DNA of 64,000 nt from Verrucomicrobiia bacterium (GCA_014239365.1 JAAZZB010000049.1:32641-96640), one strand, 5' to 3'. Shown: positions 6,198 through 58,031, counted from the stretch's first letter. Made by a program: numbers and translations. Notes: generated by a model from the sequence alone, not told the origin.

Positions 6198-7184
6198 CTA
6201 CCGGCTCGTGCAAACCGGGCACGCTTCCACCCAATGGCCGGGGGAAATTTCCTTAAACGGCGACAGCGTTTCGATCAACTCCGGTGGGTGTTCGGATCCG
6301 CTTCGGGGGGCGAAGCGGCAACCGTCCGGCGGGTCAATCGGCGTGGGCACATCGCCCTCCAGGATCACACGGTCGGGCACGTGGGTGGGGTCCGGCACGG
6401 GAATGGCTGAGATCAGCGCTTTGGTGTAGGCGTGCACGGGGTTGTTGTAAATTTCCTCAGCCGGCGCCAGCTCCACGATGCGGCCGAGGTACATCACCGC
6501 GATGCGATCGCTAATGTGTTTCACCACCGCCAAATCGTGCGAGATGAACAAATAGCTCAAACCCATTTCGCGTTGCAACTCCATCAACAAGTTTAACACC
6601 TGACTTTGGATGGAAACATCCAGCGCGCTCACCGGTTCATCGCAAATCAACAGGCGCGGCTTCAGCGCCAGCGCGCGCGCGATGCCGATGCGCTGCCGTT
6701 GCCCGCCGGAAAATTCAAAGGGATAACGCCCCGCCGCCGATTCCGGCAAGCCCACCTTGGCCAACAGCTCACCCACCCACTGCCGCCGCTCCGCGCGCGT
6801 GCCCATTTTGTGAATCACAAACGGCTCCTCCACGATGGCCCCCACCGTGTGACGCGGGTTGAGGCTCTCATACGGATCCTGAAAAATCATTTGGATCTCG
6901 CGCCGGAAAGGCTTCAGTTGGCCGCGCGAAAGGTTCGCCAATTCGTTCCCTTCAAATTCGATGCCGCCGCTCGTGGGTTCGTAAAGCCGCGCAATCGTCT
7001 TGCCGAGCGTGCTCTTGCCGCAACCACTCTCGCCAACGAGCCCCAGCGTTTCGCCCGGCTCAATGCTGAGGCTCACCCCATCCACCGCCTTACACGCCGC
7101 CACCGCGCGTTGGAACACGCCGCCCTTTACAGGAAAATGCATCCGCAATTCGTCCGTCGATAAAATGGGCGTGCCGTTGTTCAT
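6198..7184 (-). CDS. ABC transporter ATP-binding protein (OppF/DppF type)
   Basis: Walker [10 protein letters not shown], signature [15 protein letters not shown] and Walker [13 protein letters not shown] are present, plus the C-terminal oligopeptide-type extension. The start is chosen at [17 protein letters not shown]. Confidence 0.85.
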
Positions 7185-30932: not shown

Positions 30933-31000
30933 ATTTACGAATGACGATTGGGGATTGACGAATGGGTTTCCATTCGCAAACCCAAATGAAAGTGCCCTCC

Positions 31001-31128
31001 AATGTAGCCCGGGCCGGTGGCCCGGGGCCCGGACCACCGGTCCGGGCTACAACCCAACCAATCGTAATTTTTCAATCGCAATTCAAAAATTCATTTACAC
31101 CCGCGCCTCAGCGCGTACTCTTTCACCT
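31001..31128 (+). repeat. composite repeat copy 1 (GC-rich palindrome plus AT-rich promoter-like tail)
   Basis: The core GTAGCCCGGGCCGGTGGCCCGGGGCCCGGACCACCGGTCCGGGCTAC lies at 31004-31050. The tail ends at the ATG of the 31129 gene. Confidence 0.85.
31094..31121 (+). promoter_or_regulatory. candidate promoter for a leaderless transcript (inside repeat copy 1)
   Basis: TTTACA, 16 nt, TACTCT, with the ATG 7 nt after the -10-like hexamer and no Shine-Dalgarno sequence. The same geometry occurs in copy 3. Confidence 0.35.
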
Positions 31129-31560
31129 ATGAAACAAACCTTTGTTTTTCTCATTGCGATGATTGGGTTTTGTCAAACATCGTTTGCCTCTCGACTAGTT
31201 CGCATTGAAGTTTCACTTGGAGATGTGGTCATTCTAGAGGGCTCGACCGGCGACAATGGGCGTCCAAACGCGGATGAAGTTTGGAAGTATCTTGCCAAAG
31301 TCCACCTTCGCCCAACAAAAGATTTCGAGCACCTTGTGCCGAAAAATGCCATCATCGCTAATAAACTTTTCTTGAACGCCAAAGGAAAATTGGTTGTCCA
31401 ATATGGCGGACAAATGGAATTCAAATCAGTTACATTCATCAAAGTGGAACATCGGGGGAAACCGTATTGGCAGTTGGAGCCGGTCTACATTAGTCGATGG
31501 ACCAATAGCCGATTAATCAGACGGTCTGATGCAGGAGGACTAAAAGGCTTCGGCAAGTAA
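31129..31560 (+). CDS. secreted hypothetical protein
   Basis: 143 aa with signal peptide MKQTFVFLIAMIGFCQTSFA. No family recognised. A sampled line in this gene counted 43% GC. Confidence 0.5.
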   Translation: MKQTFVFLIAMIGFCQTSFASRLVRIEVSLGDVVILEGSTGDNGRPNADEVWKYLAKVHLRPTKDFEHLVPKNAIIANKLFLNAKGKLVVQYGGQMEFKSVTFIKVEHRGKPYWQLEPVYISRWTNSRLIRRSDAGGLKGFGK

Positions 31561-31563
31561 GTT

Positions 31564-31691
31564 GCTGTAGCCCGGGCCGGTGGCCCGGGGCCCGGACCAC
31601 CGGTCCGGGCTACAATCCAACCAATCATAAATCTTCAATCATCATTCAAAAATTCATTTACACCCGCGCCGCTGCGGGCATCCTTTTGCCT
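31564..31691 (+). repeat. composite repeat copy 2
   Basis: Core at 31567-31613 and a tail ending at ATG 31692. Only a 39-codon dead-end ORF follows (MKLSKMRTEPF...). Confidence 0.85.
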
Positions 31692-31722
31692 ATGAAGTTG
31701 TCAAAAATGAGAACTGAACCGT

Positions 31723-32073
31723 TTATGATTCCAACTCATTTTTCAGGCTTGGCCCCATCAATGGAATCAATTGACCCACCACATTCTTATGCCCCGTCAA
31801 GTTTTCAATAAATGACACTGAAATAAGTTCGCGCACACATTCATCGGAATTGCACATCGAATGCTCAAAATAGTTTAGAATGCGACACACAGAATCCTCG
31901 GAGCCAATCGCCCCTTCGCCGGATGCTTCAATAACAAATCGTGTCACGTCACCAAGGAATATGTGCGGCAGAATTTCATCGTTAGCACTGATATGTTCAT
32001 CATATCGTTGCTTAAGTTCCGGCACCTGATTCAGAAGCCCCTCGATAAATTCAATTGAAGAGAGGTCTCTCAA
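31723..32073 (-). CDS. hypothetical protein, candidate orphan immunity protein
   Basis: 116 aa, acidic, with no signal peptide and a TTG start directly after the upstream stop in the same frame. It is the last gene of the toxin/immunity train, in a low-GC segment (38% in a sampled line). Confidence 0.4.
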   Translation of the reverse strand: MRDLSSIEFIEGLLNQVPELKQRYDEHISANDEILPHIFLGDVTRFVIEASGEGAIGSEDSVCRILNYFEHSMCNSDECVRELISVSFIENLTGHKNVVGQLIPLMGPSLKNELES

Positions 32074-32106: not shown

Positions 32107-32340
32107 TTAAGATTTCTTTGGGAATTGCCTCAATTGTTCAATTGTCATTTCAAATTCAAAGCCTTCTTCCATAACGATCACCTTCATCATTTGTTTTTGT
32201 AAATCCGAATCATCAATATCATAACCGCAACCCAAATCGGAATATTCTGTAAATGCCCAACGCGCCAGCTTGGCTGGATCGTATCCCCCTCCCAATTGTC
32301 GCCTTAATCGCCGTGCGAATTCTTTTTTCGTATAACTCAT
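32107..32340 (-). CDS. hypothetical small protein, candidate orphan immunity protein
   Basis: 77 aa (MSYTKKEFARRLRRQLGGGYDPAKLARWAFTEY...MEEGFEFEMTIEQLRQF). The call rests on context and size only. Confidence 0.4.
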   Translation of the reverse strand: MSYTKKEFARRLRRQLGGGYDPAKLARWAFTEYSDLGCGYDIDDSDLQKQMMKVIVMEEGFEFEMTIEQLRQFPKKS

Positions 32341-32382: not shown

Positions 32383-32844
32383 TCACATAAATTTCAACAC
32401 GTCGAAACTCCCAATGCTTTCAGCTAAATCCTTCGGGGATACTTCATAAGCATTTTTAAGATTTCTGTCTGCTCCTGAAGTAAGTAACAATGTGATTAAT
32501 TCCCCGTGCCCATCTGAGTTGAATACGGCATTTGATAAAGGTGTGTTTCCGTCGTCATCCTGCGGATCAATATTCGCACCATTTTCCAGAAGTAATTTAG
32601 CCAAATCGGTTTCGAATCCCGCAGACGCGTAATGAAGCGGAGCACAGTGATGATTGTCTAATAAATTGGGATCAGCCCCTCCTTTCAAAAGGATCAATGC
32701 CATTTCCTTCCGCCCATCGATGATTGAATGAAATAATGCAGTTCGATTATCACCATCAACTGCGTCAACATCCGTAGAAGGCTCTTCAAGTGCCAATCGA
32801 AGCTGATCGGATTTCCCTTTAAAAACTAACTCAATTAAATCCAA
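32383..32844 (-). CDS. ankyrin-repeat protein (candidate immunity protein)
   Basis: 153 aa with three to four ANK units (NRTALFHSIIDGRKEMALILLKGGADPN, HCAPLHYASAGFETDLAKLLLENGANID, GNTPLSNAV...LLLTSGADRN). It starts 3 nt after the GH-E-like fragment. Confidence 0.85.
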   Translation of the reverse strand: MDLIELVFKGKSDQLRLALEEPSTDVDAVDGDNRTALFHSIIDGRKEMALILLKGGADPNLLDNHHCAPLHYASAGFETDLAKLLLENGANIDPQDDDGNTPLSNAVFNSDGHGELITLLLTSGADRNLKNAYEVSPKDLAESIGSFDVLKFM

Positions 32845-32847
32845 CAG

Positions 32848-33075
32848 TTAATCTTTCATCTCGAACCGATGGCTCCGGTTTGAACTTGGATCTTCTAGCT
32901 GATAAAGATCGGGATTATTCATTCTATCATTGAACTCCTTCTGAGTTAACCCCTCAACCTCAGCCTTTGCTTTTTCTCTTCGAAACACGGGGGACCCTAG
33001 CCCCGCCACTTCAGTTCTCAAAAACATCCACCCCATTTTTCCGAACCGAGACATTCCCGTCACCTGGCCAAACAC
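32848..33075 (-). CDS. orphan toxin-tip fragment, GH-E (HNH/EndoVII) nuclease-like
   Basis: The 75-aa ORF ends ...GLTQKEFNDRMNNPDLYQLEDPSSNRSHRFEMKD, which matches my recollection of the C-terminal half of GH-E nuclease tips. It has no secretion or N-terminal toxin body and overlaps the upstream ORF by 65 nt. Confidence 0.4.
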   Translation of the reverse strand: MFGQVTGMSRFGKMGWMFLRTEVAGLGSPVFRREKAKAEVEGLTQKEFNDRMNNPDLYQLEDPSSNRSHRFEMKD

Positions 33076-33259
33076 TCAGCACCAAATGAGATTTTGATTC
33101 CTTTTCTACACTCACTGTCGCCGGCTCCATAGTGAATGCATCATACACAGCAACGCTTTCATTCTCCTGAAGAGTTATTATCACAGCTTCCGGCTCAATA
33201 TGTATTTCAAGCGGAATTTGCATTCCGTTTTTGATATTGAAAACATTTTGAGCAGTCAT
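33011..33259 (-). CDS. hypothetical small protein, candidate cognate immunity of the 425-aa protein
   Basis: 82 aa, starting 11 nt downstream of the 425-aa gene, with no signal peptide. The call rests on position only. Confidence 0.4.
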   Translation of the reverse strand: MTAQNVFNIKNGMQIPLEIHIEPEAVIITLQENESVAVYDAFTMEPATVSVEKESKSHLVLSVWPGDGNVSVRKNGVDVFEN

Positions 33260-33270
33260 TTCTAGTTCTT

Positions 33271-34548
33271 TTATTTAAACACATTCAAGGCAATTGCTCG
33301 CAATTGGGCCGCCCGACCTGCGGCACTTGGGTTTTGCGGGGTAATTCGGGCAACATCTTCGTACGCTCTGGCCACATCGAGCAATTCCTCGCGTGTCCAG
33401 CCTCTTTCCAAAAGAGCTTCCTGCGAAAAACTCTCTGGGGTCTTCGAAACTCGCCTTGGTTTCCACCCGAAAAATTCACCAACTTCGCGCAAGCTAGATC
33501 GGCCGACAGCTCTAATCCTTTGCTTTAACCCCACTTCAGCCAATGTGTTCACCGGGGTATTGGCGGCCCCTCCTGCTCTTGCTGTTCCAATGACGGGTGG
33601 CCCGATCACTGGCGGTGGGGTTGGCGGAATGACTCCGTATCTGGTTAGTGCGCTCCACCCGCCAGCGGCGACTCCTGCCGTAGCCGCCACACCGCCTCCT
33701 ATTCGGGCACCACGTTGGTACCAATTCCCCACTGGCTCACCGGTCATTAAATCGATATTACTGGCTCCGGACCAAACCTCCCCTACATTCCAGCTTGTGA
33801 GTGCGTAGCTCCCAGCATCCACAAAACCATCTTCATTATATATGGTATCAATATTTCTCCCAAATCGTGCCAAGCCTGCGGCTAAATGTCGTGGAGAAGC
33901 CATTCCCGCCATCGATTCATTGAGGCTCGCGCCTGCCGCAGCCAATCCGCCCAAGGTGGGCGAATCCGTTCTATTGCTCAAATCATCCCATCCTCTGCTA
34001 GAATACTGGAACAACTCGGAAAGCAACTCCCGATTGCTCGCGTAGATGAGCCTGTTGATTAGAAGTTCATTCGCCCGGGCAGCTTCCTGACATTCTTCCC
34101 AATCCCAAAAGTCGCTTTCATCGGCTAATCCTCCTCCGGCCCGAATCCATTCCGCCTCAGTCCAGCACCCGATCGCTTTATCAATCATTAAGGCAATGTC
34201 TGCCGAATTTTCTTTGTAGGCCCAATCCACAAAATGCCCAATGGGCAACAGCACCCAATCCGGATCGCTCAAATCTGGCACCCAATCTCCTTCGGGAATT
34301 GCGACCCTTCCATCCTTTGGTGGCCCTCCGTGGCGCTGCCAATATGCGTGGATAGCTTCCATTGCCACAGCGTCCGTCCAGCGTGGCAAACCCAAATCTC
34401 CCATAATGCCATCCCAAATCTCTAAGCGCACCTCCTCCAAAACGCCCTCAAATAAACTATCGCCGCCTTCGTCAGCAGCATTAGTGAATGAGGGAAACAG
34501 AAACAGAACTGTCAGGAATGCTCTTGAGATTATTTGCTTCATTTTCAT
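33271..34548 (-). CDS. secreted polymorphic-toxin-like protein (signal peptide, PT-TG-like module, unassigned C-terminal domain)
   Basis: 425 aa. Signal MKMKQIISRAFLTVLFLFPSFTNA/ADEGG. NIDLMTGEPVGNWYQRGARIGGGVAATAGVAAGGW resembles the pre-toxin TG module. A Pro-rich linker IPPTPPPVIGPPVIG precedes a C-terminal domain of about 95 aa. Confidence 0.5.
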   Translation of the reverse strand: MKMKQIISRAFLTVLFLFPSFTNAADEGGDSLFEGVLEEVRLEIWDGIMGDLGLPRWTDAVAMEAIHAYWQRHGGPPKDGRVAIPEGDWVPDLSDPDWVLLPIGHFVDWAYKENSADIALMIDKAIGCWTEAEWIRAGGGLADESDFWDWEECQEAARANELLINRLIYASNRELLSELFQYSSRGWDDLSNRTDSPTLGGLAAAGASLNESMAGMASPRHLAAGLARFGRNIDTIYNEDGFVDAGSYALTSWNVGEVWSGASNIDLMTGEPVGNWYQRGARIGGGVAATAGVAAGGWSALTRYGVIPPTPPPVIGPPVIGTARAGGAANTPVNTLAEVGLKQRIRAVGRSSLREVGEFFGWKPRRVSKTPESFSQEALLERGWTREELLDVARAYEDVARITPQNPSAAGRAAQLRAIALNVFK

Positions 34549-34656
34549 AAGAGGCTCAATTCAGCACCTCGGTTCTCTGCTTGTCAATATTTATGAAAAA
34601 AACTGCCTGCCCACAACTTATTGGAATTCATTCCCATTATCGACCACCGACACCCC

Positions 34657-34784
34657 AATGTAGCCCGGGCCGGTGGCCCGGGGCCCGGACCACCGGTCCG
34701 GGCTACAACCCAACCAATCGTAAATCTTCAATCGCAATTCAAAAACTCATTTACACCGCCTCCCCATCGCGTACTCTTTCGCGC
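34657..34784 (+). repeat. composite repeat copy 3
   Basis: Core at 34660-34706. The tail holds TTTACA (34750-34755) and TACTCT (34772-34777) and ends at the ATG of the DUF1080 gene. Confidence 0.85.
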
Positions 34785-35435
34785 ATGAAGCACACCTTTG
34801 TTTTTCTCATCACGTTGTTTAGCCTTTCCACTTTTGACTCGTTGCAGGCGGGGCCGCCGAAGGGGTTTGTGGCTTTGTTCAATGGAAAAAATCTCGATGG
34901 CTGGAATGCCAAACCAAATGGATGGACGGTGGTCGATGGCGTGCTCACGCGTATGCCGAGGAGTGGATACATTTGGACGAAGGAGAGTTATGGCGATTTT
35001 GTTTTGGATGTGGAGGTGAAGGTTTCGCGTCGGTGCAATAGCGGCATCTTTTTTCGCACGGACCCGAAAAACGCGGTGCAAGGTGGATTTGAAATTCAGG
35101 TGTTCGATACCACGGGAAAAACGAAGCTCGGCAAGCACGATCACGGCGCGTTGTACGATGCCCTCGCTCCGAGCGCCAACCCCGCCAAACCGGCCGGCGA
35201 ATGGGATCGCTTTATCATCACCTGCAAAGGCCCGAAGATCACGGTGAGCATCAATGGCAAACAAGTCGTGAACGCCAACCTCGATGACTGGAAGACCGGC
35301 AACAAAAACCCCGACGGCAGCCGCAACAAATTCAAAACCGCCCTCAAGGATCTCCCCCGCACCGGCCACATCGGTTTCCAGGATCACGGGCAGAATGTGT
35401 GGTTCCGGAATGTGTATTTGAAAAAGTTGGATTGA
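34785..35435 (+). CDS. DUF1080 (3-keto-disaccharide hydrolase-like) domain protein, secreted
   Basis: Signal MKHTFVFLITLFSLSTFDSLQA. FVALFNGKNLDGWNAKPNGWTVVDGVL...GDFVLDVEVKVSRRCNSGIFFR...GHIGFQDHGQNVWFRNVYLKKL is the typical DUF1080 pattern. Confidence 0.75.
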   Translation: MKHTFVFLITLFSLSTFDSLQAGPPKGFVALFNGKNLDGWNAKPNGWTVVDGVLTRMPRSGYIWTKESYGDFVLDVEVKVSRRCNSGIFFRTDPKNAVQGGFEIQVFDTTGKTKLGKHDHGALYDALAPSANPAKPAGEWDRFIITCKGPKITVSINGKQVVNANLDDWKTGNKNPDGSRNKFKTALKDLPRTGHIGFQDHGQNVWFRNVYLKKLD

Positions 35436-35519
35436 GTAGATTTTTGGTTTTCGATTGAAGAATGGTTGGGTTGTAGCCCGGACCGGTGGTCCGGGCCCCG
35501 GGCCACCGGCCCGGGCTAC
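35436..35519 (-). repeat. composite repeat copy 4 (inverted, tail truncated)
   Basis: The core is read in reverse orientation at 35473-35519. The partial tail runs leftward and abuts the DUF1080 stop. Confidence 0.75.
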
Positions 35520-35635
35520 AATTCCAACGCTGCTTCCAATAAGCTTGCATTCGAAAACTTTGGCGTCTTTCCGATTTACTTGTTCCCCCATCAAATAAGT
35601 TGAATCTCTAGCCCATCCGCAGTATCCAACTACCA

Positions 35636-57738: not shown

Positions 57739-58031
57739 GAACACAGATATTCACGATGGACAGGATTTGGTTTTTGTTTTTCGGGGTCGTTGGTTTCAGT
57801 GCCGGAGGGACGGCCGAAAATAGCCCGGCGTTTCAACGCTGGGATAACGACACTCGAAATGGAAAAGTCCCGGAGGGACGACTGAATCTGCACAACCTTT
57901 CAACCGTCCCTCCGGGACTAAAAATCTACTCGCGCCCCAAACCCAGTGCTAAAGCACTGGGCTATTTTCGGATGGCCCTCCGGGCCAAAAACCAATTCCC
58001 TAAATCCTGTCCATCGTGAATATCTTTGTTC
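57739..58031. repeat. nested palindromic (MITE-like) element
   Basis: 30-bp terminal inverted repeats lie at 57739-57768 and 58002-58031. They enclose CCGAAAATAGCCC/GGGCTATTTTCGG (57813-57826 and 57959-57971) and a perfect 15-bp hairpin (57866-57880 and 57905-57919). Confidence 0.7.

Follow-up and report, generated by a model that had tools for sequence, protein, structure and literature searches.

Polymorphic toxin systems of the Rhs, PT-HINT and PT-TG type, in which immunity genes lie downstream of the toxin and orphan cassettes occur, were reportedly described by Zhang, de Souza, Anantharaman, Iyer and Aravind in 2012. The locus described here lies in a stretch of 64,000 nucleotides (nt) of DNA from a Verrucomicrobiia bacterium (GCA_014239365.1, JAAZZB010000049.1:32641-96640; the whole stretch is called the window, and positions are counted from its first letter, 5' to 3' on one strand), and comprises a gene for a protein of 425 amino acids (aa) with a predicted export signal, followed by an open reading frame (ORF) of 82 aa. 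Sequence comparison gives good confidence that this locus is a chromosomal polymorphic-toxin island, in which a C-terminal toxin tip of the DUF4951 type is paired with a cognate 82-aa immunity protein.

Several features are shared with polymorphic toxin systems, namely a variable C-terminal tip behind a conserved pre-toxin module, an immunity gene directly downstream, the presence of the same tip on RHS, HINT and RTX carriers, orphan and decayed tips, a displaced GH-E tip, and arrays that contain SUKH genes, as described for SUKH immunity (PMC3113570). In contrast to the described systems, the tip family of the window is not among the named Pfam toxin families, and its short carrier combines a Sec signal peptide with a unique N-terminus and has neither RHS repeats nor a recognisable trafficking domain of a type V, type VI or type VII secretion system (T5SS, T6SS, T7SS). 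The nuclease-immunity pairs of colicins and pyocins and the barnase-barstar pair are similar in that a small basic toxin domain is accompanied by a small acidic cytoplasmic inhibitor encoded directly downstream, but the window pair has no sequence or fold similarity to them, no His-metal finger and no fold of the barnase/EndoU/colicin E5-D/RelE (BECR) type, so that this analogy extends to charge and gene order only.

Short C-terminal domains lacking a Pfam toxin annotation, together with syntenic immunity genes, are also known from PT1-PT9, which are tips chosen as mapping to no Pfam family and for which the PT1 and PT7 complexes were reported solved (bioRxiv 10.1101/2021.10.19.465003), and from Tox1-Tox24, which are tips on W10XG/PT-TG carriers of the T7SS type in Firmicutes (PMC13483458). 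For both sets, cytoplasmic targets have been proposed, based on immunity proteins that carry no signal peptide (10.1101/2021.10.19.465003, PMC13483458). Unlike the PT domains, which map to no Pfam family, the window superfamily maps to DUF4951, and no link of the window family to PT1-PT9 or Tox1-Tox24 was found in either paper. PDB sequences, among which the PT1 and PT7 complexes should be present, were searched by profile; besides a repeat-driven match to DotG (discussed below), 2MMB alone was returned.

The gene pair and the parts of the larger protein are arranged as follows:

33271-34548, minus strand: putative gene for the 425-aa secreted polymorphic-toxin precursor, including the stop codon (ORF call)
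34477-34548, minus strand: predicted Sec-type signal peptide, residues 1-24 (MKMKQIISRAFLTVLFLFPSFTNA), recognised by reading the sequence
33979-34476, minus strand: N-terminal region, residues 25-190, acidic and Trp-rich
33643-33978, minus strand: conserved pre-toxin module, residues 191-302, with an LMTGEPVG motif and a G/A-rich stretch
33559-33642, minus strand: Pro-rich linker, residues 303-330 (PPTPPPVIGPPVIG...), from the sequence
33274-33558, minus strand: putative toxin tip of six helices, residues 331-425, belonging to the DUF4951 superfamily (profile and model)
33011-33259, minus strand: putative cognate immunity gene, encoding 82 aa, acidic, predicted all-beta, without a signal peptide

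The codon for residue 331 begins at window position 33558, from where the domain runs to the stop codon, and the 82-aa ORF starts 11 nt past this stop codon. A first-pass annotation, made from the sequence alone, had proposed a C-terminal domain of about 95 aa (residues 331-425) behind a G/A-rich segment and the PPTPPPVIGPPVIG linker, and had paired it with the 82-aa ORF at 33011-33259. All of the sequence that it quoted is present, and both ORFs are regarded as real genes rather than chance ORFs, because the domain has 128 profile hits and a confident fold, and because conserved homologues of the 82-aa ORF lie at the same relative position elsewhere.

Residues 191-302 share 44-55% identity with a segment of four proteins (P0138-P0141), behind which different tips are found, namely Ntox10 in P0141, Stv in P0140 and unidentified domains in the others. 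The earlier description of this segment as PT-TG-like stands insofar as it is a conserved pre-toxin module common to four other toxin proteins, but not as a family assignment, as PT-TG (PF14449) gave no Pfam match to the 425-aa protein at E ≤ 1 and none on P0138-P0141 at E ≤ 0.01, and a TG-containing motif in the segment is visible by eye only. For the whole 425-aa protein, nothing significant was found in Pfam or NCBIfam. Residues 25-190, likewise without a match in these two libraries, have a homologue only at the same locus (protein P0029, identical) among 5.8 billion proteins searched. They may serve, for example, in receptor binding or in translocation.

A word-indexed search with the 95-aa domain retrieved eight relatives only, all of 91-109 aa and 58-72% identical to it. 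A profile (A1) was built from the relatives of the word search and run against 1.84 billion representative proteins, which gave 128 proteins at E ≤ 1e-3; 75 of these also pass E ≤ 1e-10. In nearly all of the 128, the domain ends 0-4 residues from the C-terminus. The carriers include RHS/YD proteins (P0090, with 3841 aa, P0102, P0074, P0069, P0109, P0052, P0053 and L019), in which the domain comes after the RHS core motif and a hydrophobic stretch rich in Gly and Ala, as well as PT-HINT proteins (P0033, P0086) and an RTX protein (P0098). The stem thus recurs with other tips and the domain recurs on varied carriers, therefore the position of the domain in the window is that of the variable tip of a polymorphic toxin, in agreement with the effector position that had been supposed at first. 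Two family members gave no match when compared by tblastn with 72,556 plasmids, and NCBIfam returned nothing for 41 family members.

The identity of the tip family becomes apparent at the level of profiles. When 41 diverse family members were compared with DUF4951 (PF16309), 19 matched, the best of them at E 3.8e-15, and a bona fide DUF4951 domain terminates the RHS protein P0109. The window domain itself reaches 12.9 bits against PF16309 (E 0.12), compared with a gathering score of 27.3, hence the window sequence is missed by database annotation. When the window subfamily was aligned by hhalign with four members above the Pfam threshold, the match covered all 95 columns (99.0%, E 2.4e-18), and PDB entry 2MMB, a 107-aa 'uncharacterized protein', was matched by the family profile at E 3e-6. 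This profile-level homology to DUF4951 and 2MMB places the domain in a catalogued but uncharacterised family, and on such sequence evidence it is a divergent member of DUF4951. An ITP-NPSAAGRA motif is common to both, and DUF4951 is also found at RHS C-termini, whereas the window subfamily has FFGW..TK where DUF4951 has KWGGG, and 2MMB is not among the best 50 Foldseek matches of the window model. The first-pass remark that no known toxin family was recognised for the domain has to be amended accordingly, although DUF4951 has no assigned function; similarly, comparative evidence and an uncatalogued immunity family speak for the new toxin-immunity pair that had been suggested, but its tip is part of the DUF4951 superfamily.

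In its AlphaFold2 (AF2) model, the domain is compact and all-helical with six helices, at a predicted local distance difference test score (pLDDT) of 87.7. Residues W362, K369, F374, G383, T385, Y396, N406, R412 and Q415 are invariant or nearly so in the family, and the window allele is intact, with every family-invariant residue kept. The domain is basic, with an isoelectric point (pI) of 10.4, compared to a family median of 9.5, and 58 of 64 members are above pI 8.

Other candidate matches of the domain were set aside. A profile match to DotG/IcmE (E 1e-10) was rejected as repeat-driven, since no single stretch of it was significant. The pattern 'dFT..L...GWT..L' at profile positions 46-71 (window residues ~369-392) resembles the unit of ~10 residues, 'aGFTaaeLk', that is repeated in Legionella DotG/IcmE and is similar to the FT..L..GWT motif of the family. 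Matches of a few members to SAM_SMF, HTH_MCM7 and Colicin_E5 (E 0.008-0.1) were too weak, and a HEPN reading was ruled out, as the domain has no Rx4-6H motif and no His.

The 82-aa protein has a pI of 4.5, and the immunity proteins of its family range from pI 4.1 to 5.2. It has no match in Pfam (SUKH, Imm and other families), NCBIfam or PDB sequences, and a word-indexed search with it returned itself only, while its homologues come from tblastn in loci that were fetched by way of the toxin. At 12 genome loci from Planctomycetota and Acidobacteriota, such a homologue was found by tblastn ~10-30 nt past the toxin stop codon in 11. At the twelfth (L019), where the RHS tip is 32% identical, an 82-aa ORF begins 2 nt later and matches the immunity profile in hhalign (86.7%, E 4e-6). 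Members of the immunity family also lie behind the tip of an RHS protein at L064 (97.3%, E 2e-11), of a PT-HINT protein at L067 and of a second RHS protein at L066, and there is a weak match to the family behind the tip at the RTX locus L065. A reverse scan that started from the immunity gene covered 42 metagenome loci, of which 30 have the toxin domain upstream in the same orientation, usually 9-26 nt away; for 5 of the 12 loci without it, the upstream sequence is shorter than 360 nt. Co-occurrence on different N-terminal carriers, which the first-pass annotation had brought up, thus holds for RHS, PT-HINT and RTX proteins and for all 12 genome loci. The immunity protein diverges faster than the toxin (mean identity of 51% vs 64% over 29 distinct pairs), and, as far as sequence libraries can tell, its family is uncatalogued, being present in none of those searched.

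Decayed and lone modules are found beside complete pairs. The toxin module is frameshifted or truncated and the immunity gene intact at L016, L017, L018, L041, L045, L049 and L061, and the intact immunity genes beside decayed toxins keep their own start codon, a pattern of decay that is typical of toxins. At L016 (6001-6447) and L017 (5800-6525), the frameshift falls right past NPSA, and the toxin module then reads in a different frame into the region of the immunity gene. The immunity ORFs, at 6284-6553 in both L016 and L017, are intact. An array seen at L051 (2451-4797), L054 and L055 combines a PT-HINT remnant, whose tip is unidentified, with a gene for DUF7674, an ORF of 118 aa, a homologue of the immunity gene that stands alone and a SUKH-1 gene, with the DUF7674 gene of L051 directly behind the PT-HINT toxin remnant. 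This array is a typical immunity island.

A number of observations weigh against the interpretation as a toxin-immunity pair. Residues 331-425 contain zero His and zero Cys and the family has no invariant acidic residue, so that a catalytic motif is missing, as the first-pass annotation had recognised with regard to HNH, deaminase and His-dependent RNase motifs. Foldseek with the toxin model gave best E values of 1.2 (PDB) and 1.9 (BFVD) and no fold that would indicate an activity. The single-sequence model of the 82-aa protein is all-beta, but at pLDDT 63 it is too weak to trust, and the Ig/filamin-like similarity of this model (E 0.06) was not trusted for the same reason. The ORF behind a bona fide DUF4951 RHS protein at L062 matches the immunity profile weakly (E 0.011). 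The identities of toxin and immunity proteins correlate across the 29 distinct pairs, with a Mantel r of 0.86 that could be expected from genetic linkage alone. The literature searched held nothing relevant on DUF4951, PF16309 or 2MMB, with no mention of DUF4951 or PF16309, and no secretion or delivery system is encoded near the locus. Finally, most of the close relatives in Planctomycetota are stand-alone modules of ~100 aa, some with their own ATG, hence the family may also work outside large secreted carriers.

A simple helical bundle with no catalytic motif, His, Cys, invariant acidic residue or match to a toxin fold could instead be a non-toxic adaptor, docking or sorting module, used for example in secretion or surface attachment, with the 82-aa protein as its chaperone or receptor. 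This is considered highly improbable, because a private, fast-diverging downstream partner is not normal for sorting signals or adaptors, because orphan modules occur, because lone partners lie inside SUKH/DUF7674 immunity arrays, and because the domain is placed behind PT-HINT and the RHS core, which is the site of released toxins. Moreover, alleles in which a nonsense or frameshift mutation leaves the partner gene untouched suit a toxin better, and a match to a known non-toxic structural or adaptor fold, which the first-pass annotation had considered, was not found by Foldseek in PDB or BFVD.

The stand-alone modules also bear on a second alternative, namely that the pair is a self-contained toxin-antitoxin (TA) or addiction-type module headed by the toxin gene, which was captured once or a few times by secreted carriers and would have an intracellular role in most genomes, such as stress response, plasmid or island stabilisation, or phage defence. 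Consistent with this, the close relatives are mostly stand-alone ORFs of 91-111 aa, each followed by a partner of ~89 aa, and several of these ORFs begin with ATG at the domain boundary (P0002-P0008). In addition, an RHS fragment at L064 (485-3181), together with its tip and immunity gene, lies between two classical TA pairs, UPF0175/DUF3368 and PhdYeFM/PIN. However, many stand-alone copies have no ATG and retain PT-HINT end residues upstream (..VHNSSG or ..VPNSSG), a combination which, as read from the sequences, marks tips orphaned by recombination, and several are frameshifted. The window copy and many others are located on exported RHS, RTX or HINT carriers, the 82-aa partner matches no DNA-binding family, and PADLOC gave no match on 41 family members. 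A TA module is thus considered unlikely.

The strongest local clue is the truncated GH-E tip and the ankyrin gene right behind the 82-aa ORF, which the first-pass annotation had overlooked. The remainder of the island and the repeats around it are arranged as follows:

32848-32985, minus strand: remnant of a GH-E (HNH/EndoVII) nuclease tip (PF14410, E 1e-14)
32383-32844, minus strand: ankyrin-repeat protein, 153 aa (Ank_2, E 5e-22)
32107-32340, minus strand: acidic ORF of 77 aa with no family match, between the ankyrin and DUF7674 genes
31723-32073, minus strand: DUF7674 protein, 116 aa (E 1e-14)
30999-31171, plus strand: 173-nt direct repeat, further copy
31562-31734, plus strand: 173-nt repeat, copy 2, starting with a 50-nt palindrome; low-coordinate border of the island
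34655-34827, plus strand: 173-nt repeat, copy 3; high-coordinate border of the island

The GH-E match lies in a 75-aa ORF (32848-33075, minus strand) and covers only positions 27-68 of the 68 profile positions, therefore it represents a truncated remnant, and its break is near the stop codon of the 82-aa gene. From its position, the ankyrin gene probably encodes the immunity protein of the displaced GH-E tip. The DUF7674 gene is a probable orphan immunity gene, as suggested by the presence of DUF7674 in immunity arrays of the L051 type, and the 77-aa ORF is possibly another one, judging from position only. On contigs L003 and L004, a 62-aa gene is called where the window has the 77-aa ORF. The gene layout looks like a new tip and immunity cassette that recombined in ahead of an older GH-E/ankyrin cassette, an event that would have left behind the GH-E fragment, the ankyrin gene and the immunity-like genes.

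The GC content is 0.47 at 32-34 kb vs ~0.57 in the flanks. A perfect GC-rich palindrome of 50 nt (TGTAGCCCGGGCCGGTGGCCCGGGGCCCGGACCACCGGTCCGGGCTACAA) is present in four identical copies at 31003-31052 (plus), 31566-31615 (plus), 34659-34708 (plus) and 35471-35520 (minus), all of which surround the toxin island, with none elsewhere in the 64 kb and zero expected by chance. The 173-nt direct repeat is an extension of the three plus-strand palindromes, and runs into the ATGAAGCA start codon and first signal-peptide residues of two genes, MKQTFVFLI in a 201-aa ORF and MKHTFVFLI in a 3-keto-disaccharide hydrolase. As the low-GC island sits exactly between copies 2 and 3, the repeat may be a recombination hotspot or an element resembling a miniature inverted-repeat transposable element (MITE). 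The flanks consist of housekeeping genes, namely those for DsbD, PRPP synthetase, Pth, an HscB-like J-domain protein, BamB-like propellers, UvrD, HolA and IMPDH. Elsewhere in the window, two convergent copies of the Acido-Lenti-1 small RNA (RF01687) were detected ~100 nt apart, at 57798-57843 (minus strand, 47.5 bits) and 57942-57987 (plus strand, 42.9 bits).

The same locus was found in four metagenome contigs of one study, which are 99.9% identical. In one of the four (L003), G is replaced by T at window position 33360 (L003 position 1354), which turns Glu397 into a stop codon and deletes the invariant NPSA..R..Q motif, and the immunity gene of this contig is unchanged. Window position 33263, one of the 11 nt that separate the stop codon of the toxin gene from the start of the immunity gene, is A in the window and C in all four contigs. 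The premature stop in one of four alleles would fit a locus that is a relic and no longer a weapon, in which the toxin is kept by linkage and selection acts on the immunity genes against the toxins of neighbours; the truncated GH-E tip and the several immunity-like genes downstream, the delivery system not found nearby and the N-terminal 165 residues without a homologue point in the same direction. Very little probability is assigned to this reading, however, as the window allele is intact in its signal peptide and all family-invariant residues, and the three other contigs have the same intact toxin-domain sequence over the covered stretch.

For a functional polymorphic toxin, the following mechanism is proposed. 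The 425-aa protein would be exported via its signal peptide and carry a swappable 95-aa effector behind the conserved pre-toxin module and the Pro-rich linker. The immunity protein is most likely cytoplasmic, because it has no signal peptide, and would neutralise the tip by 1:1 binding in the cytoplasm of the producer, while the tip most likely acts in the cytoplasm of the target cell. The combination of a basic tip and an acidic partner is, by analogy, the pattern of nuclease-immunity pairs, and it is conceivable, if rather doubtful, that the tip targets RNA or DNA as a polyanion of the cytoplasm, which it would engage via K369, Y396, N406, R412 and Q415, acting either as a nuclease that needs no metal or by binding and blocking. 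The lack of an invariant acidic residue and of His argues against a metal- or His-dependent hydrolase, which, we infer, leaves metal-independent RNase-type chemistry or the stoichiometric blocking of an essential target as options. Possibly, though this is less likely than not, DUF4951 tips constitute a mechanistically new class of antibacterial effectors that is neutralised by an uncatalogued family of small beta-sandwich immunity proteins; such a class would rely on metal-independent Lys/Tyr/Asn/Arg/Gln chemistry, or on stoichiometric blockade of an essential cytoplasmic machine.

The arrangement of the locus is ordinary and leaves the general understanding of polymorphic toxin systems unaltered. 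The locus provides a clean example of apparent cassette replacement, together with a toxin-inactivating allele within one natural population. With a small pair of 95 aa and 82 aa and few clearly conserved candidate residues, experiments on toxicity, rescue and target would be simple. DUF4951, for which a solved structure (2MMB) is available, gains a testable role as an interbacterial toxin tip, and a matching immunity family is defined.

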